In this document: piece after piece, positions 5,084 to 50,663 of the stretch
Numbering within the stretch: position 1 is the first letter of the stretch
Layout: every line of letters starts with the position of its first letter
Assembly: GCF_964355755.1 (NCBI RefSeq)
Contig: NC_092672.1
Span: 8,308,001-8,372,000 of the forward strand
Length of the DNA stretch: 64,000 nt
DNA from: Antedon mediterranea
Lineage: Eukaryota; Animalia; Echinodermata
Reading direction: 5' to 3'
Position numbers and translations under genes: made by a program
Notes under the pieces: model-generated
What the model was told of the DNA's origin: nothing
The model's database searches: none
The model's input: only the letters and a program-made list of their open reading frames with translations

Positions 5084-9332
<4,249 letters not shown>

Positions 9333-16798: not shown

Positions 16799-19700
16799 AT
16801 GGCTGATTATGAGAGTGTTCTGTGTGTAAAACCAGAAGCATTTGTCTACAAAATTCCACCAAGAGCCACAAATAGAGGTTACAGGTAATATGGCATATTT
16901 TTTAAAGAAATAGTATTGCATTTTTTGACATAATAAGTAAAGGCCGGTGCTAGGCTAGGTAGGCTGCGAGTGAAATGTTGACCGAATTACGTGGACCCGT
17001 AGTGCAGGTGGGAGGGTATTTATATGGAGGAATTAGTCGCCTAGGCTAGGCTGGATGTTTTTTTTGTTGACAAAGTGAATTAGGTAAGTCTAATTGGCCT
17101 ATTAACCATACCTAGTTAATGTTTATATGGTTAAGCCTAGTAGGCTAGCTGTGTTTAAAACTAAAAATCAATTTAATTTATATTATTGTTTGTTTTAATA
17201 CCATTTTCAAGAAATAAAATCTTGTTTACTTGTTTACTGAATTCAGGTCTCCTGCGTATAACCTATAGGTCTAGGCCTAGGGGCCAACCAAGCATAAATG
17301 CTTATAGGCCCATCGTGAAAAAAGACATTATCTATACATTACTAATCTTCCTGAAAGTTTGAAGAATATTCCCCTTCTGTCTACGGTACAGGTACTGTAG
17401 GTAAATTTAAAGCTATTAATCTGGTTTCATATGGCAAATGTTTAAACTCTAAAAACATGCAAGTAGCACGTTGCTGCACTTTTCTAGAATTCTTTTTTTA
17501 ATTTGAAGGAGTAAACTATGTTACAGTATTCAAGAGGAGGCCTTATAATTGCCTTCAATATAACTTCACCATCCCTTTTGTCTTTAAAAAATATAACAAT
17601 CTGTTGATCTAAGCTTTTGGTAACATCAGCAAGATGAGCAACAAAATTCAACTCTGGATCAAAGGTTATTAACAACTGCTCCCTGCTTTGAGTTCAATGT
17701 TGTTCATGTAAAATATTGGAAATCAGGATTACGCCTGCCATAATGGATAAATTTACATTTAACTTTGTTAAAAGGCATCCCTGCCATTTTTTCGACCATG
17801 CAGACAACGCGTCAATATCAACTTGAAAGTTTATCTTCATCCTAATTTACGATTCTAAAAAGCTTTCTATCATCGGCGCACAATTTAACATCGGAAGAAG
17901 TAACCATCAATAAATCATTGATAAAGGCTAAGAAAAGGATAGGCCTGAGAACACATCAGATTTAGAAGAAAGGTGACCATTGCAGTAACTTTTTTGAGAT
18001 CTTCCAGAAAGATAGGCACTAATCTAGTTCAACAGACCTCCACTGATCCCAAAACTAGCAAATTTGACTAAAAGATGTTGATGGGGCACAGAGTCAAAAT
18101 CATTAAAAACAAGCACGAATGTGCAATACTCGGGGTACAGCAAAAGAAGCTGTAATGACGTCATAAGACCGGATGTAACGTCACATACACATCAATAACC
18201 GCGCTAACAAATACTGCTATACGGTACCATCTTCGAGACGTCATATGGCTGCATCCGGTATGAAATTAAAAAATCCGGCTCTATAGCTTTGAGGACATGT
18301 CCCTGTAGTATATTCATGCTAAATTCGAGCTCAATAGGCCTACTACAACGAATAAGGGAGGAGTAGTACTTTATAAATCGCACTTTTTGCTCAATAGTGT
18401 CCGGATGGAAGAAGAAGAGGAAAAGATGTCCAAGACTCAGGTACCCCGAGTAATAAAACGAGATATACTCTACCGTATATCATTTTACGTATACAGTAAT
18501 AGTATATTTCACCATAAAGTTAAAGAAAAATAGGTTTCGCTAGGGCTCGAACCGGGACCTTCTGCGTGATAAGCAGACTTGACAACCACTACACTACGAA
18601 ACCTCTTACATTAAAAATGTGGGTTACAGAAAGTTTTTTAATCCATTTAAATTACAAATAAATGGTAATAAGCACAAAGCAAAATAAACATGTGTAAAAG
18701 TGATAATTACCGATTACACAAAATAAGTATTTAAAAAAATAATAAAAATAAGATATACTCTGTATAATTATCATATTGCGTATACAGTACTTTTCACCAT
18801 AAAGTTAAAAAAAAAGGTTTCGTCCGGGCTCGAACCAGGTACCTTCTGCGTGTTAAGCAAACGTGATAACCACTACGCCAAGAATCCGCATATAACCATA
18901 TAACTACATAACGCTGTGGTGTGTGTCACACATTGTGGCTTCTTAATTAAACAAATTAATTAACAAAAAATTAAAAATCCGGCTCTATAGCTTTGAGGAC
19001 ATGTCCCTGTAGTATGTTCATGCCAAATCCCAGCTCAATACTATAACGAATAAGGGAGGAGTAGTACTTTAAAAATCGCGCTTTTTACTCAATAGTGTCC
19101 AGATGGAGGAAGAGAAGGAGAAAATGAGTAAGTACTAGACTCGGGTACCCCGAGTAAAAATTGATATGTAGGCCTTCATGCTGTTAGAGAACAGACGTCA
19201 ACTGCTTTGTGATTGGTCCTCACATGAACGTAAACATCAATAATTGAGGAGATCCGGCCTCCCTCTTGCCCTCGTAAACTTAAAAAAACATCCCTCTAAG
19301 AAAATGATACGTAAAGACGATGATGAGTAAAAAATTGTTAAAATCCCACAAAAAAGTATAAAAAACCCTTGGGGCCATAGGCTCATCACTATACCACCAA
19401 GCCATCCAGCTCGTCAATCGAATTGGGTTTTACTTTGTATATGGATGAATAAGCTTGGTTCCCACTAGGACAAAATTCAAGAACGTACAGTAAGTGCAAT
19501 GCAACCGAATTGACCATTGACAAAAGACTTAAATAATCTTGAAAAATAAAGTTACTTTAGGCCTATGCTAGTAATAGTTTGGGCTAATTATCACTGACAA
19601 TTCTTAGACCACACTACTTCAGCTACTACTACTAGCTAAGGCCTACCTAGTATGTGGTGTACAGTATACTTCGAAGAGGCCGATTTTATGTAAACGCATA

Positions 19701-22700
19701 CTGTGTAAATAAATATTTTTTTTTTTCCATTTTTATTTTTCCACTGATAATTATGACATGACATGAACTAGGCCTACTGCATAGTAACTGCTTTCATAAA
19801 AATCCTAATCTTGTAGGTCGTACTGTAGTTGGTAGTACTTCTGGCAAAGCCATTATATAGTCTTAAAATAACATTTGGATTGGTAGCTTTACAGTGCAAT
19901 TCTCACCCTGATTTTTGTTTATATATGCATAATACAAATACTTGCTGTCAATGTATTGTTACTAGTTAGTACAAACTAAAATTCATAGCTAATTATCCCA
20001 GTAGAGGATACAGTGGGCCTACTCTAAAGAAAGAAAGACTTGTGTTGTAAAATTCACATGGTTTAAGTTACAGAACAGGAATATTGTGTTAAAATTGTAA
20101 AGTCACTTCCTGAAGTTTGTGGTTGAAGTCTCTAATAAAAGTAATTTGAATTATTGTTCCATATGATGACCTCTAACCTAATGCAATGATCAATTTGTTA
20201 CAATCACAATTTCTGCTTTCCAACAAACATGATGACAATTTTGCAACATCCATTAATGTATAAATTTTTTTGAAGAAAAACAACATTTTGTTACTAACAT
20301 GTCTATAATTACAAAAATTGAATAAAATTAACAAATTGATTTAATTATATTACATCAAATAAATAATTCATTTATAAGTATAAATATTATATTAATAAAT
20401 AAATAATTTCTTTTAAAAAAATCTCATAACATACGCCTTCTCACAAACAATTTCTTTAATATAATACAATCATCTTAACTGTTTTTGATTTTTAATGAAT
20501 TCATTTATTTTCGGTATTCAGTATCTGTTTAAAATTTCTTCTGTGCCTGTAAATTTTATAAATTAAAAAGTTTTCTTATTTTAATACGTTTATTAGAATT
20601 CAATTTACTGTGAAAAAGATAACTGTACAATGATGATGAAGTATACCATGAAGTTCCTCCTTTTTTTGCTTAAATAGTGACAATGTTTTTTTTTTAAATT
20701 ACATTAAATTAATTTGTTATTGTAGTTACCTTGATTGTTATTACTGTATGATTTTGCAATTGAAATGAATGGTTAAAGAATAATGTGTATTTTAAATATT
20801 CTCACCCAGTGTTTTTTCAATAACAAATTCAATGTTGATTTTTAGAGCTGCAGACTGGAAGCTTGATGCGCCTGACTGGACAGGGAGGTTAAAGGTCATT
20901 GCAAAAGGAAAATCATGTTTTGTAAGGTTAGAAGACAAAACATCAGGTAACATTGATTTATTTATAATTATTAAATACACATTATTTTGAGAAATCTAAT
21001 ATGCATCTAAAGCCTAAAGTATAGACTATATATCAATCTATTGACAAACAAAAGTGTGATGTGTCCATATATGGCAGTGATATGATGTCATCGTATCCAT
21101 ATATGGGTACATCAAATTTATAGTTTGATAGTGTAGCCAGAGCTTGAAGCCTAGTAGTATACTATCAAACAAGTTTGACATAAAAGTGTGATGTGCCCAT
21201 ATATGGCAGTGATATGATGTCATCGTATCCATATATGGGTACATCAAATTTATAGTTTGATAGTGTAGCCAGAGCTTGAAGCCTAGTAGTATACTATCAA
21301 ACAAGTTTGACATAAAAGTGTGATGTGTCCATATATGGCAGTGATATGATGTCATCGTATCCATATATGGGTACATCAAATTTATAGTTTGATAGTGTAG
21401 CCAGAGCTTTAAGCCTAGTAGTATACTATCAAACAAGTTTGACATAAAAGTGGGATGTGTCCATATATGGCAGTGATATGATGTCATCGTATCCATATAT
21501 GGGTACATCAAATTTATAGTTTGATAGTGTAGCCAGAGCTTTAAGCCTAGTAGTATACTATCAAACAAGTTTGACATAAAAGTGTGATGTGCCCATATAT
21601 GGCAGTGATATGATGTCATCGTATCCATATATGGGTACATCAAATTTATAGTTTGATAGTGTAGCCAGAGCTTTAAGCCTAGTAGTATACTATCAAACAA
21701 GTTTGACATAAAAGTGTGATGTGTCCATATATGGCAGTGATATGATGTCATCGTATCCATATATGGGTACATCAAATTTATAGTTTGATGGTGTAGCCAG
21801 AGCTTTAAGCCTAGTAGTATACTATCAAACAAGTTTGACATAAAAGTGGGATGTGCCCATATATGGCAGTGATATGATGTCATCGTATCCATATATGGGT
21901 ACATCAAATTTATAGTTTGATGGTGTAGCCAGAGCTTTAAGCCTAGTAGTATACTATCAAACAAGTTTGACATAAAAGTGTGATGTGCCCATATATGGCA
22001 GTGATATGATGTCATCGTATCCATATATGGGTACATCAAATTTATAGTTTGATAGTGTAGCCAGAGCTTTAAGCCTAGTAGTATACTATCAAACAAGTTT
22101 GACATAAAAGTGGGATGTGTCCAAATATGGTACAGTAGTTGGTATGACATCATCATGTCCTTATATGGGCACATCATATTTTTTGTCACATTAAGTTTGA
22201 TAGTGTAGACAGAACTTGAAATGATTGAATATGAACATTAATACACTTTTGTTTATTAAGGCGAGCTGTTTGCTGAGTGCCCGGTAGATAGTCATCCTGG
22301 TGTGGCTGTTGAAGGCGTTATGGATTCTAGTCGATACTTTGTGCTTAGAATTGAGGATGGCAATGGTAGGTAGTGGTGAATGGTATAAAGCCAAAGATGG
22401 GGAGGGGCAAGAAAGAGGCGCGTGTTTGTAGGGACTTTCATGTTTGAGAAAATGTCATATTGGATCAATTTTGCAGCATGGCTTAAGTGTAACAATAGTG
22501 ATTCTGTAGCAGCTAATATGTTGACAGTCCTTGTAGGTATACTGTCATGATATGAGTGCTTTTCCTTAATAAATGGCATGGTATTTCTAGGCCTAGGTCA
22601 CCTTAACATGATGCTGAAGTCCTTGTAGGGAATAGGTATACTGTCATGATATAAGTGCTTTTCCTTAATAAATGACATGGTATTTCTAGGCCTAGCTCAC

Positions 22701-30634: not shown

Positions 30635-33116
30635 CTATGTCATGTTGCCTTTTGCTGTTTGCATTGAAACACGATGACTTATATACCGCCCTCGATTTGC
30701 AGTAATATACAGCCCAATACAAACGCCTACCATCATAATCATTATAATAAAAAATGTGTACACTGTAACATTAACAAGAATCGGTTCGTCCATTTGCCTT
30801 AGGTGGAGCTCTGCTTGGTGGAGGCCTGGATTCAGTTCTAGCGCGTGACGAAAATGACTGGATGCTTCGCTGACGTTACCCATTGCCATATGTATTTCAC
30901 CGAGTGTGTAGTGTTGCAACCAAACGTTACGATCTGATCCTTTGCACGATTTCAGTTCTAACGACTGTTGCGCTATTGTATACGATGAATTCAGATAGTT
31001 AAGGTTGTAAAAGACACGTGCCAAGTTTAAAAGAATATCAGGATTCTGTGGGGAAACATATAGTGCTTTCCTAAAACATTCTATGGCAAATCTCGTATTT
31101 CCTTTTATTCTCCAAAAATTACCTACTTGGTTTAAAACTGAAAGAGAATCTGGATTCTGCAAAAAATAAAAACATTAACAAAAAGTGAGACTTTAATTGA
31201 TAGAGAATGAGAAAAATAAAAAAATAAGCTACATCAAATTGGTGGTCAAAAGTGGGAAATATATAACAATTTTACCATGGTTATGTGCTGTACTATGTTT
31301 GTCAAAAGTAAATGATTTAGTGTTTTTCTTTGTTCTTACACGTACAGTAATTTATAATTCATACAGCCAGCAATATCTTCTTATATCATGGAAGAGTGTG
31401 TAATAAATATATATATTCCCTACTTAATGTCATAAATAATTTATTGTTGTTAATCGGACCATCATATGTTAAAAGGCTGACTGTTTGTTGTTTTGCCGTT
31501 TTACCTACAATATAAACAAAATTTGATGCCAGGGTGGTTCCAAGTTTTCTTAAACAATGCGGGGCTAACATATACGGTAATATTTTTGTTCTTGTAATCT
31601 TTTTCTTTCATTTATCATATATATCATTGTTATTTTGCCAATATTGAAATTAATAATAAATGTTCTTGAAATGAAATATAAAAATAGATATTAAGGGCCC
31701 AGTTATTGTTATAACTGAATAAATGTGCATGAAGGAATGAATGAATGAAGTAGTTTGTAATTTCACCTGTGGATACTACAGTACATAGATTTTAGTTGAC
31801 GCAGGCATCCAATCTGAAGCCGATTTTCCTCTAGGCGAATTTGTTCACACGAATCAAAAGCGCCAGCTTATACGCATGCGTATTCATGTTTCTATCTTCC
31901 AAATCCATCTCTGCGCATGCGTATAACCTGACACTTTCGATTCATGCGAACAAATTCGCCTAGTTGAAAATAAGCTTTAGAAATGAAGCCTGTTTATAAC
32001 TTTGTTTGCAGTAACTAATGTATTGGAATCTCATTACAGTACTCTTAACTTGCTGACACCCTAAGCTTCTTAAAAACCTATCCTTGAACTATTATTACTA
32101 AAGTAGTTCCATAAAATAAACTAAATTCCAGAAAATAACTAACATTTGTGATTAATTCCCTCAAATTTTTTTCTAAAGTGTTAACATCAATTTCTTCTCC
32201 TTCGGTTTTTTTGAAAATCATAGCAACATCTGGCTCGGGACTCGCTACATGGCTATTACGTTTTACTATTCCATCCAGGTGATCAACTTCTGTCGTGTTA
32301 GTGTGCGGTGTGCAAAATAAAGGGTCATCAGGTTCCTGAAAAATTCTGAAAAATAGATCAATTTAACAACATTAAATTAAATAAAGGTAAAGGAAATGTG
32401 AAATGCTTGAGTAGAAGTAGAACGTTTTTTTTGTTATCATGTTTTACTTCAAAACAGGAAATATACTCTGAATTATATAAAACAATTATCTTTTCCTGTT
32501 GCAATAAGACACATATGGACGGGTTGAATATACATTACACTGTAAAACGGTACTAACTACTATATTACCTACTTATACTACAGTACTAGTAAGTAAGTAA
32601 TTTATATACACTTTAATTCTTATGGCAATCTGTTGGATTTAAAACTTATTTAATATAATTATTATTAAAGTTGGAGATACAAACAAAGTAGTTAAAACTA
32701 ATTTAATTAATAAATAAATAGTTAATTTATACACTATTATATTTTAGATAATATAATATTTAATAAAAAATTACACAAACAGGAATTTAATTTAGAACAT
32801 CTGAAATAAAAATAGAAAAGAAACGGCCAAAACAAAAGACACATTATTACTTATTGCGCTCGTGTGTCTCTTCACATGATACACATTCAGCCCGTTCAGT
32901 CGCCTCACCAAACCCATATTTCTGGGCCAAGATACTCAAAACGGGGTCCTCACTGTTTACGCTCATCGGGGCTTCGTCAGTCACAGGCTCGACAAGTGCC
33001 ACACCATCTCGATTTACTAATCTCCAGTGAGTCGCAGATCTTGTATTTGTTGATATTATTGAGGAAGAAAGAATATAAAGAGCTAAGTAAGTAACGCAAG
33101 GGAGATCACATCCCAT
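30635..33116 (-). CDS. TTC17-related TPR protein (~329 aa) with signal peptide and C-terminal TM; exons 33116-32851, 32345-32144, 31156-30635
   Basis: A signal peptide is followed by ATHW, as in the TTC17 N-terminus. Exon 2 encodes FCTPHTNTTEVDHLDGIVKR..PEPDVAMIF. Exon 3 encodes NFWRIKGNTRFAIECFRKALYVSP..ILLNLARVF..HYTLGEIHMAMG..ALELNP, matching the TTC17 module YWRVKG..AIDCLRQALHYAP..NHFTLGNVYVAM. Splice phases (2, 0) are consistent. Confidence 0.85.
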
Positions 33117-34045: not shown

Positions 34046-37000
34046 ATGGCGGTGGGAGTATTTTTGGTGTTAGTCTCTGCTCTTGGGCTACTTTCCACTG
34101 TTCAAGGCAGTGGAAAAACTCTAATTTTGTTAGATTCTATGGCAATAAAGGAGTCTCATTCCATCTTCTTTAAATCGTTACAAGGTGGGTAATATTTACA
34201 ATCATTTTACCGTGTTTACGCTGAGGGCCGGTAGCCCTCTAACGAATCAACAACAATGCAACGTCACCAAACTTCAACCAGGGCCGGCGCGGCCCAGAAT
34301 GTGGTCCTTCCCCTTTTGAAGGATAACCTACACAGGCCGGCCTAGCCTAGCTAGTTCTATGAATTTAAATAGTGACTTAAGCTACAGTAAATACTATATA
34401 ATAAGCTTATACTAATACTTACGAGCTAGAATTTTTAACCTGTATTTTTCTTAATTTTTTCCAGCATTCTTTTTTATTGTTAAAATAAATCATATTCATG
34501 TGACTCTTCATGCTTCACCAGGCCCAGTCCTCATCCTGGCATATGGATATGGCCCAAGCCTGCTAATCTGAATAAAAACTAAAAATGAGGCTTCACCTAT
34601 GTATGAAAGATAACAATTTAAGAGAAAAAAATCAAATGCTGTTCTAAATTATAATTTAAATATGTGGTTAAATATTTTTCTTTCTATAATTTCAGATAGA
34701 GGTTATGAGCTGACTTTTAAAACTGCTGATGATTCTAATTTAAAACTCACCAGCTATGGAGAGTATCTTTATGAGCATCTTGTTCTATTTTGCCCTTCAG
34801 TTGAAGGTACAGTACACAGCATACAGACGAATTACTGCACCAAACTACACCGAACCCAATGAACCACACAGTGAACTATAGTAAACACATGGCTTTACTC
34901 ACCATCATCTTGTTCTAGAAGGGTGGTTGTTTAGATTTTGAGGTTCAAGGCCCGAACTCTTAATATAGGGTGATTGTCGTAAGCATGACTCCTTGTATGA
35001 TGCGGTTCATTGGGGTACGGTGTGTTTCATCATTGGGGTTTGATGTAGTTCATATAGCGTTTGACGTGATTGTGGACTGCTGTACATGAGAATTGAGATA
35101 GGCTATTTTAATTGTATTTGTTTTATTATAATAAATTTAGAATGATACTACCATTAACTTATTCTATTATAATATATCAATGGTATTCTGACATTTAATG
35201 CTGTTGACTTTTTTCTTATAGAATTTGGAGGCAGCATTGGAGAAGAATCAGTTTTAGATTTTATTGATGGCGGTGGAAATGTGTTAATCGCTGCTGGCTC
35301 AAGTATAGGTATAGGTTTTGTTACTATAACATGGAACTACTCTTAGATAGTGGGCCATTGCATTTTCATTAACATACCCATATATGGACACAATGACATA
35401 TCACTACCATGTTTGGGCACATCACACTTTTTTTTTGTAAAACTAGTTTGATACTGTAGACAGAGCTTTAGTATAAGGCTTTGTTTCCCACAATTTGTGC
35501 ACCATTTACAGTACCTTCCCTGCTTCAAAAATTCTGAAAACAGAAAACAATCACATTTGAAAACCATTACCACTATAAACATAATCAAAACTGTAGATCA
35601 ATTTTATTCACAATCACAATATTTGTTTTTAATATATTTATTATTTCTTAATCATCTCTGTACAGGTGAACCCATAAGGGAAATTGGAAGTAATTGTGGT
35701 GTTGAATTTGATGAAGAAAATACCGCTGTAATAGATCATCTAAACTTTGATGTGAAAGATGAGGGAATGGTAAGTGTCTTTGGTATCCTTTTTTGTGACT
35801 TAAATTATTAGGCAAGATTTGGACCCAAGACCCTGGGATTATGAGACAGTCATCAAGAACCACAAAGAGGTTGACTATATTCTACATACATTGACATTAA
35901 GTACCTGCGAGTGGCCGAGTAGTTAAGACAGTGGAACCATAATTCTGTAGCTATACCATTGGAAAGGGTTCAAGGCTCACTTGCTCCAAGGTTCTGGTGG
36001 TAGAACGAGTCTTCTTGGATAATGACTATAAACTGTAGGTCCTGTGTACACATCTAGCTCATGTGCACTTTAAAGAACTTAGTACATCTTTCAAAACAAG
36101 TAGGGAGTTACCCCAGTGTACTAGTACATCACAGCCACTGATCGTGACTGGGCCCTCTGGGAGACCAGTCTTTTACTAAAGAGGTCACCCGGTATAAATA
36201 AAATATTTAAATGTAAGTAAGCAATTGCAAAAAAAATATATATATGTAAAGCATTTCAATTCTAATCGTATATGTTTTTCTTTATATTTCTAGCACACAT
36301 TGATTGTAGCAGATCCAGCTAATATTATTGATTCTAAAATCATTGTAGGAGATAGGAAGTTAAATCCAATTTTATTTAAGGGTGTTGGGTAAGTAAACCA
36401 GTCACCAACAAATACTGTAGTTGTTGATTAAATTCCTTTCACGACTAATCTAGTGTTGAAGACAATATGCACAATTATAAACAAGGGTATATGGCTCTGT
36501 CTACACTATCAAACTTTATGTAACCATTGTACCCATATATGGACATGATGTTGTCATATCACTACTATATTTGAGTAAATCACACTAGTTTAATAGTGTA
36601 GGCATAGCTTTTTTTCTGTCACATAAAAGAGCTTTAGGATAAATAAGATTTCATGGCCATGGGAAATAGGTTACATTGCTGCCCATTTGTAATGTCTCGC
36701 ATTTATTTTTGGTGTTCTCGAGAAAAAAATATGAGATATGACCATGTGTAGTCCCATACCCATCAAGTATAAACCACTAATTTTTTTAGATGGTCTTTGG
36801 ATACTGTAAAACCTTGAAAAGAAGCCTACTGGGCTTCTGTTTAATGTTTTATTGTATCCAAGTATATTCCCATCACTTACTCCAAATGTTGTATCTTTTC
36901 TATCTCAGTTCGTACAATGCTTTGTTTATCTAAATTATTTCCCCTTTTTTATACCATGTTCAAGTACCCTTCATTGATATATATTCAAATGTAAAATTGT

Positions 37001-40000
37001 TTAATTTCTAGAATGACTGCTGACCCAGAGAATCCACTTGTTATGGATATTTTACACGGAACATCATCATCATACTCCCATAACCCCAACGATGATGTTA
37101 CCGAATATCCACATGCTGTCGGTAAGAACACTCAGTTCATCACAGCGCTGCAGGCACGTAACAATGCCCGTGTCATGTTTTCTGGTTCCTTGGATTTCTT
37201 CAGTGATGCCTACTTCCAGTCGGCTGTGCAAAAAGCACTTCAAGGCTCTCAGAAGTAAGTACATTGCACGTTAAAGAAGGCAGTACACTCTTAAGCTCTG
37301 TCCACACTATCAAACTTATGTGACAAAAGAAATGTGATGTTCCCATATATAGACATGATGACATATCACTACCATATTTGGGCACATCACAATTGCTTGT
37401 CAAACTAGTTTTATTGTATTGCTCAAGCTTTAGAAAAGAGTAGGAGATTGTCTTGTAGTGTACTGCAATTAAATTCACCACCAGGAGGACCCTACTGGAG
37501 ACAAGTCGAAGCTCTGTCTACACTATCAAACTAGTTTGACAAAACAATGTATGATGTGCCTAAAAATGGTAGTGATATGACAAATATTCTGCTTTAAAGT
37601 GTACTTCTACTTTCTTGAACTGTACTGTTTACTCTGATTCTGTTTTGTATTTTAGGTTTGCTAAATCTGGCAACCAAGATCTAGCATTTGCCCTATCTCA
37701 GTGGGTATTTAAAGAGAAGGGTGTTCTGCGTGTCACCGGTGTTACTCATCACATTGTGGGAGAAAAGACACCCCCAGCAGCCTACACAATTGAAGATCAA
37801 GTGGTAAGGATTATATTTGTATGCTTCTGTGTTTATTAGTGTAAATTATTTTATTTAAAATAGAAATAAGCTTTTGGGCTATCCTGGAAAATCTTTTATA
37901 ATGTATTTATTTGTAATGTAATGTCAGTAAATTATGTTATCACTTTGTATGTATTTTTATGATGAATTTCCTTATAAATTCATCATCCTATTAACATGAT
38001 GGTACTCATTTTGATGTACCTTGTTTAATAGTTATGCATGGTTTACTTTTAACTATCTAGCTCAGAGAGATCGGTAAATGATTTTCAAATTTTTTGAGAA
38101 GCTTTCTTATTTAGTAAATTAAAATAAAACATGGAACTCGCCTAACAAGTGAGCTCCACTGTTAAATTTGCCTTCACTGAATAAGAAACCTTTTCAACAA
38201 ATATTTTGCAAATGAGATACTAATATTCAAATATTGATTATCATATCATTTATTTTGGCAAATTTCAAATACAGTAAAACAGTAAATGAGGCAGAATCAT
38301 CTAAAATGTATAAATAACAAGGCCATATACATGGATGGCCCAGTTGCGTGTTCAAATTTGAGTTGTTTACCGACCGACCGACATAGTAAGCTAAAAATAA
38401 CCGTCGATGGCAACACAATTTTGTAATTTTACAGTCTTTATAATTAACTCACTAACCATCCTTAAAATAAACTGCTATATCATGAATCGCTAGTAATGGT
38501 CTTGTACAGGAGCTTGCAATAAGTGTAATGTGAATGATCTTGTTTTTATTTTAGGAATATGGTATCTCAATTGAGCAGCTTGTTTCTGGAAAGTGGAAAG
38601 CTTTTGATGCTAACGATGTACAACTTGAATTTGTCCGTATTGATCCATTCGTTCGCTCCAAGCTCAAAGGCAAAAGTATGTAATCAATGTTATATTCGTT
38701 TTTAGATTAAAATAAGTCACTGTAATAACAATTATTATGAAGGTATATCATGGTCATATCTCCTAGTTTCTTAGTCTATTGACACAATTCACAATTAAAA
38801 TAACAATAGGCACCAAAAGCGGGTGCTTGTAAAATTTACACACAGACCAGAGAACATTTAGGAACAAAGACACAAACAAATCTAAATAAAATATTTACAT
38901 AATCAAACACAACCCGTCCGCACCTCCGAAAGAGTGTCACCTTGTTGACACTCTCTTTCCAACACGATAAAATTTGGCCATCGAAAACTACCAGTGGTTG
39001 GTTGAACCTTTTATTTCTCTGAGTTTATTCACCCAGATTGCATTTTTTCAAGCCCAAACTAACACTACACAACTGAAGCTGTTTCAACAGCCCACCTGTA
39101 AAAGGAAGACTCTTGGATGTGCGATTGTTTGTTAGTATACACACATTTAGCCTGTTTATTGATTGTTAAATTGATTGTTATCCGTAGATGGACGATTTTC
39201 TTCAAAATTTAAACTTCCTGACGTTTATGGCGTGTTCCAGTTTAAAGTTGATTACAATAGAATTGGCTATACACATTTGTACAGTACTACACAGGTGAGA
39301 GTTTGTGAATAATTTATTCCTCATGTGTTTGAAAATGATTTGAATTTGAAAGGAGTCCATGTTGCCTTTTTGGTAAACAGGCTCATAACCAGAATTAATA
39401 ATAATATATCTTTATAGAAATTATTGCACATTCACATTATTACCCCGGTCATGTCAAACACGTTGGAAACATACTCCCATAATGCAGCTAGTAATCAGCA
39501 CAAACTTTTGTCTTGATTAAACCGGATACCCATTTATACACCTGGGTGGAGAGAGGCAACATAAGTGTCTTGCCTGATACAAGCAATGCAGGGGGTGTTG
39601 GATTCGAACTCACAATCAGTTATCCCACGTCCAACACACTGCACCACATGCCCTTAGAGTGTATATGTGACATTGTTGAATGCATGGGAGAGTCCTAAGA
39701 GTCAATACAATATGACTATGTCTGTAATGTTACTGTATATGAATTTAAAGGCAATCTAACAACAGGACACTCGAGCTCGCCTTGCCAAGATAGGAACTCA
39801 TAACAGTCCTTTGATCTTATGTCTGGCTGCGACATATACCAACAATACTATGTACATGTTTTCCACGTTGTTTGTTAAGGGGCATGGAACTGATCGTGTT
39901 GCAACCACAGATAAACCCTTTAGTCTCTCGAGCAAAGCATCCTGTTGTTAGATTTCTTCGGTTTCACTGAAAAGGATTTTTTTCACATGCTTTTAATTGG

Positions 40001-41207: not shown

Positions 41208-42913
41208 CGTATCCGGATATTCACCCCCTGGACATTTACCCCCCGGACAACTACCCCCCGGACAACCACCACCTGGACCACTACCCCCTTAGGACAACTA
41301 CCCCTTTAGGACAACTACCCCCCGGACAAATACCCCCCGGACAACTACCTCCTGGACAACTACCCCCCGGACAATTACCCCCTAGGAACAATTACCCCCC
41401 GGACAATTACCCCCCGGACAATTACCACCCAGAAAACTATCCCTTTAGAACACCCTAACCACCCAGACCATTCAACAACCTGACTCTGCAACAGTGTATA
41501 ATAGGAATTAATAACTATATTTTAATGACGAATTACTATTCATTATTGTAAACAAAAGTAAAAGATTGAACATAAATATAGCCTGGTATAAACTGAAGAT
41601 TGTCACACATGATCATAGGATAGTCGAACGTATTATATAGTACTCCCTGTATTTACTGTAAAGACTGGGTTCGCTAATAATAATAATAATTTTTGCGTCA
41701 GGACAATGCTTCGATAACCACTGGTCTTAAAAGAATTAATTTTTGTCTCAAATTTGTCATATATGTATTTTTGTACACTTGAAGAATAATATCACTTTTG
41801 ATATTTGACCTCAATGTTCACTCACCGAATAAACGTCGATCTTTAAATAAATTCCCCTCAAATAAACGGTGACCATGTCACTCCCATGAAACATCATATG
41901 GAATAATCGGCGTCTATTTCCATTAGATTATACCCCTCCCATTGAATAAACAACTTTCTTCCAATAAATGTCCACCTAAAAACCACCTAAACAATAAACA
42001 GCCCAGGCCGTTTTTTCAATAAATACGGTACTTTAAATCTAGCACATCTAGGGTCTAGCGTGCTGTTAAACAGAATAATCGGTTAAAAAGGGGTGTTTCG
42101 AAACTAGAGACCCGAGACCAGAGACCAGAGACCCGAGACCCAATACGAAAAGGGAGACCTAAATATACGAAAAGGGAGACCCACGTACGAAAAGGGAGAC
42201 CCCACTATACGAAAAGGGAGACCCCACTATACGAAAAGGGAGACCCCACTATACGAAAAGGGAGACCCTAATATACGAAAAGGGAGACCTAAATATACGA
42301 AAAGGGAGACCCAATTATACGAAAGGGAGACCCAAATATACAAAATGGGAAACCCAAATATACGAAAAGGGAGACCCACTATAAGAAAAGGGAGACCCAC
42401 TATAAGAAAAGGGAGACCCCACTATACGAAAAGAGAGACCACACTATACGAAAAGGGAGACCCTAATATACGAAAAGGGAGACCCAAATATAGGTCTCCC
42501 TTTTCGTATTGGGTCTCGTGTCAGGTCTCTGGTCTCGGGTCTCTAGTTTCGAAACACCCGTTAAAAACAGATGATTTCATTTTTACAGAAACCGGTCCTA
42601 TATATTTGTCTACTTTTGGATGGGGGGGGGGGTAGTTGACCGGGGGGTAGTTGACCGGGGGGTAGTTGACCGGGGGGTAGTTGACCGAGGGGTAGTTGAC
42701 CGGGGGGTAGTTATCCTAAGGGGGTAGTTGTCCTAAGGGGGTGGTTGTCCGGGGGGTAGTTGTCCGGGGGGTTGTTATCCTAAGGGGGTAGTTGTCCTAA
42801 GGGGGTAGTTGTCCGGGGGGTAGTTGTCCGGGGGGTAGTTGTCCTAAGGGGGTAGTTGTCCGGGTGGTAAACATCCGGGGGGTAACTGTCTAGGGGGTAG
42901 GTGTCCTAGAACC
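41208..42913. mobile_element. MULE-like non-autonomous element with long inverted arrays of a 15-bp GGACAACTACCCCCC unit; 9-bp TSD
   Basis: A C-rich array at ~41215-41450 is mirrored by a G-rich array at ~42620-42910. CTGTCTATA is duplicated at 41199-41207 and 42914-42922, and the insertion splits the TIR of a family-A MITE. Confidence 0.8.
42090..42559. mobile_element. Nested TIR element with internal 21-22-bp tandem array
   Basis: TIR GGGTGTTTCGAAACTAGAGACCCGAGACCAGAGACC and its reverse complement; GTTAAAAA on both flanks; internal repeats of TATACGAAAAGGGAGACCC. Confidence 0.85.
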
Positions 42914-44175
42914 CTGTCTATACTATCAAACTAGTTTGACAACAAAAGTGTGATGTGCCCAAATATGGTAGTGATATGACATCATCATGTCCATATATGG
43001 GCACATTAACATTTTTTGTCACACAAAGTTTGATAGTGTAAACAGAGCTTTATAAATGAAATAAAAGATCTGCTCTAATCAGTCTTTGTTATAAACCCTC
43101 TGTCAATAAGAAAAATAAGCCATTGATTTTTAATGTGTACTTATTCATCATGTCAGTGTCAACATTCTGATGCCATTGCTGTTGATAGAAAACAATTAAA
43201 TGCACAGGGTATGCTATATATCTTTTTTATTCCATATTGAAAAAAATGGTATGAGTAGAAAAAATACTTATATTTCGTCATGAAATTAGAATTCCAATTT
43301 TGCATACATTATTAATTTTATTATTCATTTTTAATATTCATTATTTATGAAAAAAATGAAATGATATGTATTCTGTCGTAATATTAGTATTCATGAATGT
43401 TGTGTTACCCAACACCACCACCTGTAGTTCGGATTTCCCAATTTCCGGTATTTTACACGACCATGAAAATGGAATTTCCACAGCAAGCACCGAATAGAGT
43501 ACACTGTACGTGACGTGTGTAATAAAGTTGACGTTTATATTTCACAAAAGAGTCAATTTCTAAACACTATATAGAAACACACTTTCGTTGAAATACTGAA
43601 ACGGTTATATGTACGACACTGCTCAATTTCTTTAAGGTAATATATACATATGTCAATACTTTATTTGAAAATACTGTACTTCTTTAGACTAATTATAGCT
43701 AGGCCTAGGCCAAGTTGCTCTAGCAAGGAGGTGTCGGGCGTGATGTGAAAAGCACGTGGTGAATACCATCACAAAAGTGGTCCCAGAATGCCCATTCGTT
43801 GATAAACATGGGCCTACAGGCTATCTATAGACTTATTAACTATACCTTATTAGGCCTAGCCTCTAGACAGACTTGTTTGTTTATAATAATGTGTTTGTGT
43901 GTTTAATTAGTTTGTGCAGGGAGTTTACAACTCCCTGGTTTGTGTGATGTAATCTGCAAATTTGTTTTTGTCAGACATGTATTTTTTTATAAAAGAGGGT
44001 TGGCGGGGCCGGGGGCGGCCGGGGAGGAGGTTGAGGTCCTTATTTTTGCTTGATGAAAAAATGACGCACATGTAGTCGACCCCTCCATTTTGTCTTCAAA
44101 TTCACCCTACTCTCATCTTGTACAGTAATACATTGATTCTATTTTGTCCATCAGTTGTCACGCGTGCATTTGAAG

Positions 44176-47100
44176 ATGTTTTATGATGACGACGATGATA
44201 CAATTCTGCCATTTCTGTCTCTCGGACCGTATTTGATGAGACGAAAAATACAAGAAGAAATGAACAAGAAAGAAGTAGGCCGAGTTTATATTCTAGTTTT
44301 AATTAGTTTACTTTTAGCTTAAATCATAATGTAGCAGTTCCGCAACCAAGATAATTAAAGTGGTGCAGTATTCCCCCTGTGTGGGTCACAGGGTTGTCAA
44401 AAGTCTCTGTTAAAAAGTGGTCATGGTGAAACCTTACCTGTACGAATTTTACTGGTGGCTGTGTCCGGTGTAGTATTTTGAATACATGTTTGTTATTAAG
44501 GGCCTGTTTCTATAGAGCAGAGAATACGGTTTTGAATACCGTTCTTTTCAAGAACCGTTTTTTCTTGCCAGCAGAAATGGGTCCCCACAAAAAACCACAA
44601 AAAAGAACCGATCTTAAAAACGGTTTCAAAAACCCCAATTGATTGCGGTCTCGATCGCAAAGAACCGTTCTGAAACCGGTTTCCGCGGAGCAATTTTTAG
44701 CTGCAACACAATCGCGGTCTCAATTTGACCCCAAAAACTGAACTCTGCAGTCTGCTGCACTGGGATGATTGCGGTCATCTCGCAGTCAAACTCGCGCGAT
44801 AGGACCTAGGCCTAAGTCATTTTTATTTCTCTAGATAGTGAGTATTTTATTTAACTAAAAAATGTTGACCGATGCCATTACGAGGTTCGTAAAAAATATG
44901 TGAAGGAAAGAAGATGAGGGGACTTGTCGGGAGTCGGAAGAAAGACTCACGTATAGGCCTACATGTTTTTAAGAATATTGTAAAGCGTGTGAAAAATAGA
45001 CGAGTTCAACTTGACAATATCAGAGGGTGCGACGTACCTATACTTTAACCAAGGACCACAATAACGTTTCAGGTAATAATTCCCCTTCTATGATGAAATG
45101 GATGCTATTTCTTGGGGATCGCGCTATGCGAAAAAAAGTAAACATGACCTCGATCAAATCGCGCTTCCGCCTAACGAACTGCATTGTGGTGTATATAATG
45201 ACGTCATTCATAACGAACGCACATGGACGGAACCGGTTTTATTGGAGTAAAAATTGAGCTGCAACGCGATCTTTATTTATTAAACAACAGCCGAAACCGG
45301 TTTCCAAAAAACCGTTCTTTTTTTATTTTTCAATAGAAACAGGCCCTAAGTGTTTTATAATAATAGTCCTCAAATGAAATACAATATCCCACAAACGACT
45401 GAAAAAATGTAAACGCTATAGTGCTGCCATGAGTCTTTATGATCAGAGTTCATCTATCAGTATTATTTTATTTCTTGGTCCCTTTTAGTTAGATAAACCA
45501 TGGAGGAAAAAATAATAATAATAAATTAATAATAATAAACAAAACAATCTCAAATAATTATCATTATACACTCAGGAAGAAGAAGCATCAACGAGCAGGA
45601 AGATGAAGAATAAGCCGACTGATTCTATTGTAATTAAAGTTGGTGTGTCAATGGGGAGATTCTTTAATAAAAAGGAGCTGAGTGATGTCAAGTTAAAGGT
45701 AAGTATATGCATTAGTTCTCCAGTAAGTTAAACAATAACAATGTATTTAAGAACACTCACTTCGTTGCTTAACAAAACGTTAATAAATTCCATTTTATGC
45801 CAGACTAAAAATGATTGTGGTCACAGTAGCGAGCTTCCGTGTCGATACTGTAGATGAAAGAGAAGGAATGAATGGAACAACGGTTGAATTATTGTCCATT
45901 AAGGTACCCTTATATCGACATGTAACTCAACTGTGTCGACGTAAGCGCTCCAAGCAACTGAACGCAACTGACAGGCACACAAAAAATGTCAACATAAGCT
46001 TAGTTGCTTTCTGTCGCCCATGTTCTACTTTTCCGGAACTGAAAACTTTGAATCGAGTCACGTGCAGTGTAGGTAACCGCGACCAGTTTGATTTTACCAA
46101 AAAAAACGTTCACGCATACTGATTCCTCTATACAACTACATTGCGCTGTAAGTTAACCACAATTAGTTACAATCAGTTCCAGTGTCGGCATAAGCACTTG
46201 CACACTGGTTCCTTTCAGTTGAGTTCCATGTGGACATAAAGGGCCCCTTAAGTCAAAGTGATTTATTATGATTATTTAATATGTATTGCATACCACTTAA
46301 AAGAATGATTCTATTGTATCTGGATAAGTAGTAGCAAGAGCGATATTCAGTAGACCTTAACTCCCAATGTTTCTCATAATGTATTGTATGTATTTTTTAA
46401 AGGTTGGTGATAAAGTCTTTGATGCACACAAGATAGTTGTAGTGTCTGCAAGCGACGTCTTTGAAGCAATGCTGATGAATGAAAAATGGCAGGAGGCAAG
46501 CAAGCAAGAGATTGAACTGCAAGATGACAACGCTGAAGACTTTGCAATGGTTCTTAAGTTCCTTTACACTGGAAGGATATGTCTTCACATCAAAAAGATC
46601 ATGTCTGTGTATCACATAGCTGATAAATACAATCTAAAAGTACTAAAGCTGGCTCTATGCAAATTCCTTCATAAATTTGTGACTCAACGTAAGCAGCAGG
46701 GAAAACTCACCTGCCCAGAAGCCATTGCAATTTGCAACGCATTTGAATCCGACACGCTGATGCATCCTGGGTTGAAATCTGTCATACAGTGGATTGGAAC
46801 AAATTTCAACAATTTCATAAAGAGTAGTGAATGGGAAAGCCTTCCGAGAAGAACCATTCTGATGATTCTGCAAAAAGATGAAATTGGTGACAATGAGCAG
46901 AAGATCTTCGCAGCAGCAAAGAGGTGGTTGCAGTACGATGACTCGCGTACTGAAACACCAGAACTCATCTTCGAAGTACTGCAGCACGTTCGACTGACGA
47001 TTCTCTCTGCGAGGGACTTGTATACTATAGAAAACGACCCTATCGTAATAAGATGCCCTCAGATGGTGAAACTTGTTTCCGACACTATACGGCGAAAGTT

Positions 47101-47281
47101 TTATGAAGGTGTGCCCAACTTTATAGGTGAAAGTGTAAAACCAAAATGGCTGAAGCGTCGTGAAAGAAATTACTCCAACCCCCCCTCATGCGAAGTGTCA
47201 TTCTCTTATGGCTGTTACTATGGTGATGATGATGACTACTTTGATGATGAAGACGAAGACTACTCCGATAACGAATGGTAA
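44176..47281 (+). CDS. BTB/POZ-BACK domain protein without Kelch repeats (~366 aa); exons 44176-44274, 45576-45698, 46403-47281
   Basis: FNKKELSDVKLK/VGDKVFDAHKIVVVSASDVFEAML..W.EASKQEIEL.D..F..VLKFLYTG..ADKYNL is the BTB domain. NFNNFIKSSEWESL..IL..D..EQKIFAAAKRWLQYD..VLQHVRL is the BACK domain; an acidic tail follows. The first exon is inferred from phase-0 splice compatibility; the alternative start is ATG 45603. Confidence 0.85.
44500..45346. mobile_element. PIF/Harbinger-like non-autonomous element
   Basis: TAA-GGGCCTGTTTCTAT ... ATAGAAACAGGCCC-TAA: a 14-bp TIR with a 3-bp TAA TSD and subterminal AACCG(G)TT repeats. Confidence 0.85.
45903..46247. mobile_element. Diverged TIR MITE flanked by TTAA
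   Basis: GGTACCCTTATATCGACATGTAACTCAACTG compared with the reverse complement of the right end, GGGGCCCTTTATGTCCACATGGAACTCAACTG; TTAA on both flanks. Confidence 0.65.
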
Positions 47282-47932
47282 TAGGCCTAGTTAGTAGACT
47301 GCTACCAAATTATCCTACCATAGTGATTGCACTATAACGACTCCCAATAATGTCCATGCAGTATCATACCCAAATTCTGTAATACAGTGTTAAATGTGAC
47401 ATCTGTATCATAGGCCCTAACCTTAACATGCTGTAATACAGGTATCATATGTGATACCGTATGTCACTGTATTACAGAATTTGCATATGATACAGGATGT
47501 ATTATCCCGAATACAGAGAATCGATGAAATATTGCCTTTTGTTGTTACGTTATACTCTTTGTACATAGCCTACTTAAAATGCTATGTAAGTATCTTTTAG
47601 TTATCTATTATTGGTTATCTTTTTATTATCTATTTTTACGCAAATTCATGATTTTTACTGTCTGTTTAAAGAGAGATGTGATTTCAGACATGTTTTAAAG
47701 TAACTTTCTTACATTAAATATATAATCCAAATTCTACCAAGTATCACATTATTGTCCATAAGAAATTAATGTATTTGAATTGAGCCAACTGTTGTTATTC
47801 TGCCTACCTTGGTATCACAAAAAAACTATTATCACAATAATTATAATAAACTATAACACATTGTTTTACAAGATGTGCATATTTGATCAGGTTTGTATTT
47901 TAAACCTGAGTAACACTTGGCCTAAGCGTGTA

Positions 47933-48113
47933 AGGCTTGGTTCCCACTAGAACGTAATGCAAGGACGTAAACGCAACGCAAGCGTTTTAACCAATGACAA
48001 GCGAAGTTATAGACAGTTAGCAATCACAAGCGAATAAGCCATCGCTTGTGATTAGTCAATTCACTTGCGTTGCGTTACGTCCTTGTATTACGTCGCTAGT
48101 GGGAACCAAGCAT
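47933..48113. mobile_element. ~180-bp foldback MITE (family C)
   Basis: GCTTGGTTCCCACTAG ... CTAGTGGGAACCAAGC TIRs. Related pieces lie at ~10935-11270 and ~19451-19520. Confidence 0.75.
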
Positions 48114-49189
48114 TACTGTCATAGTATAATGTGCATGACAATATTCTGTAATATATTTTAAGTAAACTATAATTTTCATATAATCTACTTCAAATTTAAA
48201 AACAATAATTTTCGTAGCTGTGAAAAATAAAATACTATTTATAATAGTATGGAGTTGACTAGATTTCACATTTTATTGTAGCTTTAATTTTGTTTCTGTA
48301 GTACTAAAAAAAAATTTGTTTATGTATTAAACCTACAAATCCTTTTTGTTTGTAATTTAAAGTTGTATTTAGAAGTGTTAATAAAAGAAAAGTTGTTTGT
48401 TTTAATCTTGGTGTATTTGTTTTTTGTTTTCAAGCCCATCCAAATATATTTCGTGATTGATTCAAGTTCAAATCAAATGTTGACCAAAAGTTGATTGTTC
48501 ATCTTTTACGATATTATAATTCTGAAGAAAAAGGAACTCCAATGATATTATGTACCATCTCAGTGGCTGTAAACCCAAGTCTTGATTATTTTAAATGTGA
48601 ATTCATTGTAGATACAGATTTTTGTTTTTATTTATTCAGGTATAACAATTTTACAAAAAGTAGACAAAGGTCTGAAGATATGTTATTACAAAGATTAAAA
48701 CATTAAATTGACGGATCAAAAGTAGACAAATTCACATCAAAACTACAAAATAAAATTGAAAAAAAAAACATTAAAATGTAACAATATTGCAAGGTTATTA
48801 AATTACTTATACCTTTCCCACATATTGATCTTAATTTTTTAATTAAATTATATATTTTTAATAGATTTTTAAGATGAATGATTATGATGAATTTCATCGC
48901 AGTAGATCAAGCAGTTACAAGACGTTTATTAATGGTTTAAACTACGATATGCTATACACAAAATAATGACACAAAGTTTGAAAATTTAATTTATAGATAA
49001 CATGAAAATTGAACTGAAAATTAATTGATAGGCCTACCAAAAATACGGAAGTGCATTTCATTTAAGTATTAATTACCAGTTATTAATTTCAAGTTGGTTC
49101 TCAAATTACTGTTCCACTTTTATATAATGTTGAAAGAAAAGTGTGTGTTCATTTACTAACTTTGGATCGTTTTGGTATCATCTCTCATT

Positions 49190-50179
49190 ATGTCGTATGT
49201 TAATGTCTTCTGTTATGTCTTACTTTTATCAAGGATGTGCTCGAGTACAGGTAGTGCAGGGTTTAATATTATGTATCCTGCCCCAATTAATGATATCTCC
49301 AGTAGGCCTACCAAAACGTTAAACGGTGATGAACTCTTGACTCCAGAGAAATTGGACAAGCGAATGTTTCCAGAGGCATTAAATACACGTATGTATCCAG
49401 AGGCGTTATTAAATAAACGCATGTATCCAGAAGCATTAAATAAACGCATGTTTCCAGAGGCGTTATCGGACAAACGCATGTTTCCAGAGGCTTTCTTGGA
49501 TAAACGCATGTATCCAGAGGCGTTATTGGACAAACGAATGTTTCCAGAGGCGTTATTGGAATTGGATAAACGCATGTTTCCAGAGGCGTTTTTGGATAAA
49601 CTCATGTATCCAGAGGCATTAACTAAACGCATGTATCCAGAGGCATTATTGGATAAACGCATGTTTCCAGAGGCTTTATTGGATAAACGCATGTATCCAG
49701 AGGCGTTATCGGATAAACGCATGTTTCCAGAGGCGTTATCGGACAAACGCATGTTTCCAGAGGCGTTATTAAATAAACGCATGTTTCCAGAGGCGTTATT
49801 AGATAAACGCATGTTTCCAGAGGCGTTATTGGACAAACGCATGTTTCCAGAGGCGTTATTAAATAAACGCATGTTTCCAGAGGCGTTATTAGATAAACGC
49901 ATGTTTCCAGAGGCGTTATTGGACAAACGCATGTTTCCAGAGGCGTTATTGGACAAACGCATGTTTCCAGAGGCGTTATTAAATAAACGCATGTTTCCAG
50001 AGGCGTTATTAGATAAACGCATGTTTCCAGAGGCGTTATTGGACAAACGCATGTTTCCAGAGGCGTTATTGGACAAACGCATGTTTCCAGAGGCGTTATT
50101 GGACAAACACATATTATTTCCAGAAGCGTCATTGGACAAACGAATGTTTCCAGAGGCCTTAAATAATGAACAATCGTGA
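49190..50179 (+). CDS. Secreted multi-copy peptide precursor (neuropeptide/pheromone-like prepropeptide, 329 aa) with 27 M(F/Y)PEAL-type units
   Basis: First ATG at 49190 (the ORF track starts at an upstream TTG). An N-terminal hydrophobic stretch VNVFCYVLLL..CSS and a ~40-aa pro-region precede 27 units, mostly bounded by KR. TATATAA lies at ~49121 and AATAAA at 50312. Many inter-repeat differences are synonymous in this frame. Confidence 0.85.
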   Translation: MSYVNVFCYVLLLSRMCSSTGSAGFNIMYPAPINDISSRPTKTLNGDELLTPEKLDKRMFPEALNTRMYPEALLNKRMYPEALNKRMFPEALSDKRMFPEAFLDKRMYPEALLDKRMFPEALLELDKRMFPEAFLDKLMYPEALTKRMYPEALLDKRMFPEALLDKRMYPEALSDKRMFPEALSDKRMFPEALLNKRMFPEALLDKRMFPEALLDKRMFPEALLNKRMFPEALLDKRMFPEALLDKRMFPEALLDKRMFPEALLNKRMFPEALLDKRMFPEALLDKRMFPEALLDKRMFPEALLDKHILFPEASLDKRMFPEALNNEQS

Positions 50180-50399
50180 ATTTTTGTACAATTGTGTTGA
50201 CTGAACATTCTCATTAGAAGTATTCTTTAATCGTACTTAATTTATTATCTTACCATTTGCTCACTATCGCGTGCCTCTATAATGAAGGTGTAATGTTCAA
50301 CTAATGAAATGAATAAAAATAAAATCAATAGTTAAGTAACATTTTTATTTCATTTACCGTAATTTTTTATAATTATTTACTTTTATTTTTTGCCCGTGA

Positions 50400-50588
50400 C
50401 GACATGCATGACCAATCAAGACACGCGCTAACTATCTGCAATAATACACTACCACCACCACCACTGTAAAAAAATAACTATATAGCGCCACCTATCACAC
50501 ACAAACTTTTTTAAGCAGACGACTTTGTGAAACATGTGTTCATTGTTGGCATTTTGTCTGAGATTCATTCATTTATGTATTAAAACAG
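50400..50588 (+). promoter_or_regulatory. Probable promoter and non-coding first exon of a further gene extending to the window end
   Basis: CCAAT at 50412, GCGCCACCT at 50485 and donor CAG|GTAATA at 50588/9, followed directly by a dense CTAG/TAGGCCTA tract like those in the first introns of the other genes here. Confidence 0.4.
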
Positions 50589-50663
50589 GTAATAATCTGA
50601 CTAGGAAGATTCAGTATTAGTTAAGAAAGTATGTATTCTACAGTAGAATTAAGATCTACAGTA

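Follow-up and report, generated by a model that had tools for sequence, protein, structure and literature searches.

Does a repeat-built open reading frame in the feather star Antedon mediterranea encode the precursor of a signalling peptide, and does that peptide belong to a described family? In the 64,000-nucleotide stretch analysed here (the window), an ORF scan identified an open frame at 49190-50179 on the forward strand that encodes 329 amino acids plus a stop codon; the same frame is closed upstream by a stop at 49157. An earlier note on this DNA had read a 329-residue frame with 27 tandem units, and both counts were reproduced; translation also returned the nine copies of MFPEALLD flanked by Lys-Arg (KR) that it had listed. 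The frame contains 24 KR sites. If every KR were cut, 20 peptides would be freed singly (Table 1); the broken sites TR, KL and KH leave six units joined as three doubles, and the remaining unit is the C-terminal one, an 11-mer. As the note had claimed, Gly precedes KR at none of the sites. The computed masses of the peptides are about 0.84-1.18 kDa and their computed pI is near 4.

The units are 30 nt (21 units), 27 nt (three), 33 nt (one) or 36 nt (two) long, one of the two 36-nt units being the last, stop codon included. TRF described the same region as a 30-bp array at 49351-50161 with 27 copies and 86% matches. The 3' half of the array is a higher-order repeat of groups of three or four units and is recent. 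All 27 units carry Pro-Glu-Ala, and position 2 is occupied by Phe in 21 of them and by Tyr in the other 6; such invariance, together with the constant Phe/Tyr, is also expected from homogenisation of the array. The Lys of KR is invariant in 24 of the 25 scored units. At the end of the pro-segment lies a decayed in-frame 28th unit; its alignment to the repeat unit agrees in 24 of 34 columns, and 6 of 2000 shuffles score as well. In three DNA runs from one sample the locus stands at about single-copy depth; array depth in these runs is 2-3 times that of the flanks and is unusable for copy number. No second copy of the array was found inside the 64-kb window.

Table 1. Positions of the features of the frame and of its neighbourhood within the window.
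Feature	Positions	Strand	Remarks
Upstream ORF, 10 codons	49127-49159	+	same frame; within RNA-covered leader
Likely signal peptide, aa 1 to ~23	49190-49258	+	predicted from hydropathy
Pro-segment, aa 24-56	49259-49357	+	varies between animals: F25L, P32A, D35Y
Decayed in-frame 28th repeat unit	49332-49362	+	pro-segment end
Tandem units, 27	49364-50176	+	27-36 nt each, KR-separated, three sites broken
Singly freed units, several copies			MFPEALLD x9; MFPEALLN x3; MFPEALSD x2; MYPEALLD x2
Singly freed units, one copy each			MYPEALN; MFPEAFLD; MFPEALLELD; MYPEALSD
Stretch covered by run X1	49100-50100	unstranded	one contig 49100-49464 plus array pieces
Allele changes in run X1			C8C, F25L, P32A, D35Y, T66K, M68L
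Shadow ORF, 333 aa	49213-50214	-	stop-free over array; no sign of selection
AATAAA hexamers, two	50312-50323	+	possible poly(A) signal; outside RNA contigs
181-bp satellite	1-4884		~27 copies
NSUN5-type 28S rRNA methyltransferase gene	5084-9332	+	six coding exons; matches P0003
Exon, DUF1681 match	16685-16885	+	weak match
132-bp array	21050-22130		8 copies, 98% alike; its 379-aa minus-strand ORF is repeat-made
Exons, TPR protein match	30638-31174	-
OST48 match	34614-37255	+
15-bp GC-rich unit arrays, inverted	41223-41452; 42627-42906		surround the 22-bp array; may be a foldback or miniature transposon
22-bp array	42143-42492
BTB/BACK gene	43437-48350	+	annotated kelch-like protein 7, though kelch repeats are absent
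BTB 5' exon	43437-43636	+	added by X1, as is the 3' UTR to ~48350
Repeat-derived stretch in BTB intron	44497-45346		850 bp; a contig of DNA run X3 bridges it, hence perhaps a polymorphic insertion

The frame begins about 1.9 kb behind the stop codon of a BTB gene on the same strand. The BTB gene (46403-47281) is 100% identical to an Antedon mediterranea protein and 75% identical to one of Anneissia japonica, and a methyltransferase exon (8805-9332) gave 100% and 70%, respectively, which identifies the window as feather star DNA. The other neighbours are housekeeping genes. No receptor or peptide family was matched by the 119 of 159 stop-free stretches of at least 60 aa that were scanned, big repeats excluded.

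Five sequencing runs hold the locus, none of them recorded as RNA. One of the five, run X1, holds spliced RNA: a contig joins 43437-43634 to 46397-47961 with a GT donor and an AG acceptor, and the 239 letters between the joined segments fit two small BTB exons. The X1 data come from one study and from another animal than the reference, and the contigs carry no strand. Over the frame, X1 provides a single unspliced contig (49100-49464) at depth 6.7 and at least six further pieces over parts of the array, as far as 50100. No reads lie at 48900-49009 or at 50110-50659, and the cover does not extend to the stop codon and 3' UTR. Background patches in introns and intergenic DNA have depths of 2.8-4.5 and the BTB gene has 53. 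The X1 cover lends weak support to a separate transcript starting near 49100.

The X1 contig also provides a second allele of the 5' part of the frame. Six of 275 coding bases (2.2%) differ from the window, five of them non-synonymously; none of the six creates a stop, and the sole change in the leader (C8C) is silent. T66K gives KR at the first of the sites that are broken in the reference. Depth arithmetic places three missing letters within 49230-49339, which, if adjacent, would most simply be the loss of one codon. The divergence resembles that of non-coding patches (0-2.9%), unlike that of the BTB gene (0.13%). Pro-segments of peptide precursors are often unconstrained, so this high divergence is indecisive for coding.

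The short hydrophobic leader that the earlier note had seen is present, but it is only marginal as a signal peptide: its core comprises eight hydrophobic residues (V6-L13), the best 9-residue hydropathy is 2.56, and a basic residue before the core is absent. Small residues mark candidate cut sites at S19, G21 and A23. A separate upstream exon supplying a signal peptide was considered and rejected, the X1 contig running unspliced through all candidate acceptors. The flanking motifs once listed in support of a gene proved uninformative. AATAAA does occur downstream, at 50312 and 50318, as it does in 87 of 319 bins of 200 nt; the X1 contig, which starts at 49100, takes in the TATA-like hexamer at 49121, and such hexamers occupy 107 of 639 bins of 100 nt in this AT-rich window. 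The same contig places the 10-codon upstream ORF in the leader of the transcript, a point against the precursor reading.

Searches of proteins, Pfam and the literature placed the peptide in no described family, which bears out the note on this point. From 2705 candidates of 180-576 aa a word-indexed protein search returned a single match, to a pentapeptide-repeat protein that is unrelated, and the exact protein sequence of the frame was absent from the protein collection. A phmmer search of 1.84 billion representatives gave 436 matches at E<=0.001. The motif occurred in none of the best 150 of these, 11 of which had at least five KR-bounded short segments; such precursor-like matches appear to be unrelated peptides aligned through their KR spacing. 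All seven Pfam matches to the frame were repeat artefacts. DUF1660 was rejected on inspection: it exceeded the cut-off only through summed weak pieces, with no single significant stretch. The PDB sequence search returned no match, and 36 pattern matches in metagenome contigs yielded no confirmed case. In a language-model search all eight listed clusters were multi-peptide or peptide-hormone precursors, the best score of 0.88 lying below the threshold of 0.9 and thus counting as a lead only. No orthologue was found in collections holding Antedon and Anneissia proteins, and for this reason the precursor gene is probably unannotated in the reference.

The literature searched, which left subscription journals, figures and bioRxiv supplements outside, did not contain the octapeptide. 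The motif was likewise absent from the accessible text of the 2022 crinoid neuropeptide catalogue (PMC9793003) and its seven supplementary files, sequences given only in figures lying outside the search, from the six supplementary files of PMC5627052, and from the one short, probably sequence-free file of PMC11868395; the portion of PMC4772807 available to us gave no motif match. Predicted precursors restricted to one lineage are common, and the crinoid catalogue already lists 20.

What kind of gene would this be? The earlier note had recognised the architecture of a neuropeptide precursor; its KR-bounded repeats, with 20 singly freed units, stand, and the signal peptide is the marginal element. 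We favour, and consider somewhat probable, a secreted precursor from which prohormone convertases release acidic, non-amidated 7-10-mers that act on a G-protein-coupled receptor. Routed into the secretory pathway by its leader, the precursor would be cleaved by the convertases behind each KR; carboxypeptidase E would then remove the basic residues, and each molecule would yield about 20 acidic peptides of 7-10 residues with free carboxyl ends, nine of them MFPEALLD. The Pro-Glu-Ala core and the aromatic residue at position 2 would form the likely recognition face. To judge from the class, the source would be neuronal or neuroendocrine and the peptides would serve as a local signal through their receptor. 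Pro3 would stall aminopeptidase trimming after loss of Met1 and would not shield the whole N-terminus. The array itself grew by tandem amplification of a 30-nt unit: its two ends hold old, decayed units, whereas those of the 3' half are young and identical. The frame is probably a real, as yet undescribed multi-copy peptide precursor of this feather star, a new peptide from a well-known kind of gene.

Several known systems share this layout. The crinoid F-type SALMFamide precursor also consists of tandem near-identical KR-delimited peptides. Its products end in Gly-Lys-Arg and are amidated, whereas the C-terminal Gly before a dibasic site, following an aromatic residue or Leu, is found nowhere in the present frame; the last SALMFamide peptide scores 17 against MFPEALLD with 4 of 8 identities in a shifted register, which is chance level. 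The N-terminal Ala-Asn of AN peptides is absent, the units here starting with Met-Phe or Met-Tyr. The crinoid predicted precursors of PMC9793003 likewise combine a leader with dibasic-bounded peptides and mostly have no relatives in other taxa; PCNP1 alone among them has a comparable copy number, and its peptides start with Ala-Asn.

A protein of Elysia marginata, GFR64901.1 (P0177), was the best precursor-like match among the 150 listed in the profile search. As in the present frame, it places non-amidated 7-8-mers ending in Asp or Asn between KR sites. Its identity of 26% derives mostly from DKR spacing, its peptides start with F-[MI]-x-G-L and its N-terminus cannot be aligned with ours, and we would read the likeness as convergence. 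Though named a Fam-a protein, GFR64901.1 is a multi-copy precursor: it has 36 KR sites, and most of its F-[MI]-x-G-L peptides are non-amidated. In another record, MEE4245177.1 (P0174), a hydrophobic leader is followed by 11 identical QFGDAAD units between KR sites; the layout is that of an animal precursor, although the protein is labelled as that of a Kangiellaceae bacterium.

The comparison with the pedal peptide/orcokinin family requires more care. The note had set the peptides apart from this family, which is right for membership but does not extend to descent. Echinoderm members are characterised, according to PMC9793003, by an N-terminal Phe, an Asp-Pro/Thr-Leu core and a C-terminal aromatic residue. 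The present units have the first of these, through the Phe (21 of 27) or Tyr (6 of 27) at position 2. They have no core of the Asp-Pro/Thr-Leu or (D/E)-P-(L/M) type, Asp being the last residue before KR and Glu-Ala-Leu the only acid-x-Leu sequence. An aromatic residue after position 2 is absent from 25 of 27 units, and in the other two Phe occupies position 6. Two of three features thus fail; the KR-x-[FY]-P start and an alignment with 5 of 8 identities keep descent in play.

The crinoid pedal peptide/orcokinin precursor (AnjapPPLNP and its Florometra orthologue) is also multi-copy, KR-delimited and of similar length (379 aa). As here, x-[FY]-P follows KR directly in its peptides, F and Y alternate in the same way and Met comes first in some of them, and the N-termini of both precursors fit M-x-Y-x-x-x-F. 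One Florometra pedal peptide starts with GFPNAGLD, which is identical to MFPEALLD at 5 of 8 positions, ungapped and in register. Of 2436 post-dibasic 8-mers from database proteins, two score as high as this pair (BLOSUM62 score 20), as do 5e-5 of simulated ones, the pair having been picked post hoc from about 70 precursors. The two precursors differ in peptide length (7-10 residues here, 16-18 in crinoid pedal peptides), in the Gly before KR, which is present in crinoid pedal peptides and absent here, and in gene structure, the Anneissia gene having an intron after codon 30 and the present frame showing none in its first 275 coding bases. A further likeness, between the end of our pro-segment and a pedal peptide spacer (hand score 20 in one of three species, 14 in the others), was dropped because this segment is the decayed repeat unit; an unrelated crinoid cystine-knot precursor has six residues identical to the same segment. 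Three short motifs found no pedal peptide exon in the window.

In the Florometra GFPNAGLD peptide, the core Asp lies ten codons from the Asp that precedes KR, and one slippage event would thus yield a 30-nt unit of the present form. Provided that the gene is real, its origin from a pedal peptide/orcokinin precursor by truncation is possible but less likely than not. The accessible text of PMC9793003 reports the Antedon pedal peptide precursor as not found. In supplementary file 2 of that paper, AmedPCNP4 is left unassigned; by eye it aligns end to end with the Florometra and Anneissia pedal peptide precursors, with which it shares the first peptide. It looks like a partial Antedon orthologue, in which case the present gene could only be a paralogue. 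In the same file, FserPCNP8 is identical in sequence to the Florometra PrRP/sNPF-type precursor.

Echinoderm neuropeptides can be active without amidation: the starfish peptide SMP, a member of this family, is active with a free carboxyl end and needs no amide (PMC5069636). Pedal peptide/orcokinin receptors were described as unidentified as of 2017 in the accessible text of PMC5656890, and the titles of the later papers found announce none. A bolder version of the truncation reading would be a newborn system: a duplicated pedal peptide/orcokinin gene in which slippage between the two Asp codons, with their ten-codon spacing, multiplied only the N-terminal half of a single peptide into 27 half-length copies lacking the residues for family activity, the shortened ligand acting as an antagonist or on a different receptor. 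We hold this to be unlikely.

The precursor reading has its most serious competitor in a non-functional array: a minisatellite, or the decaying pseudogene of a precursor, picked up by weak background transcription or by read-through from the BTB gene in front of it and giving no functional peptide. We think it improbable, and the evidence bears on it from both sides. The open frame alone says little, because the antisense strand is also stop-free over the array, and random 30-nt units drawn from the window have a mean of 3.1 open frames of 6. Of random units, a fraction of 0.108 has KR in an open frame; 0.011 of random flanks offer an in-frame Met together with a hydrophobic stretch, and a stop turns up within six codons at a frequency of 0.32. 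Multiplied, these three chances give about 4e-4 per minisatellite array, and with perhaps 10^4 arrays per genome (extrapolated) a few chance look-alikes are possible. The X1 depth near background in unstranded contigs, the neutral-looking allele divergence in the 5' part, the three broken KR sites and the absence of the frame from the annotated proteins all suit a non-functional array.

Against these points stands the length of the units: every one is a multiple of three, after at least three separate length changes, and frame was kept even in the oldest, decayed units. Such frame-keeping would lower the chance about 25-fold, the antisense frame being kept too. In the KR frame, 7 of 16 changes are synonymous where 4.2 are expected (P 0.08, uncorrected for six frames); the open antisense frame has 5 where 4.8 are expected, and an excess appears only in the KR frame. 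Counted by codon, 8 of 18 changes are synonymous, with P of 0.012 under a flat null and 0.07 under a transition-aware null, again uncorrected for six frames. These tests are suggestive of coding in the KR frame. Also unfavourable to the minisatellite are the single-copy depth of the locus, unlike that of satellite families, and an RNA cover that begins just before the ATG and leaves a gap towards the BTB 3' UTR.

If the precursor is real and processed by convertases, its products need not be neural. They could be a high-dose secretion of epidermis, saccules or gonad, a pheromone or a deterrent, in which many copies raise the yield. Many copies of near-identical peptides are what such a role would call for; rapid divergence, with no orthologue found, suits recognition or defence products, and the low level in X1 would suit a stage- or tissue-limited gene. 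The peptides are, however, acidic (pI ~4), whereas typical antimicrobial peptides are cationic, and known crinoid neuropeptide precursors share the multi-copy layout, which leaves a non-neural secretion quite unlikely. An uncut secreted repeat protein of a matrix or an adhesive, with the 10-residue unit as a short helix and KR in a structural role, is very improbable: AlphaFold does draw a helix of 5-6 residues per unit, but in a low-confidence, single-sequence model (mean pLDDT 47, pTM 0.28) unfit for a fold search, convertases would have access to dibasic pairs that recur at ten-residue intervals in a secretory protein, and no PDB or Pfam relative above the cut-off made sense.

The convertase-cut signalling precursor is the reading that we favour, and it lends itself to a direct test: a short, unmodified peptide is cheap to make, and an arm-muscle assay exists for Antedon mediterranea (PMC9793003). 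Crinoids form the sister group of all other echinoderms, and the catalogue of their peptide signals dates only from 2022. A 27-copy precursor that is absent from that catalogue and from the searched protein collections means that repeat-rich precursors are still being missed. If it is merely a lineage-specific precursor, its importance is modest, the kind being well known. Descent from a pedal peptide/orcokinin gene by truncation, if borne out, would make it one of the rare cases in which the rise of a new peptide family can be followed, and would provide a natural tool for probing a bilaterian peptide family that is still an orphan.
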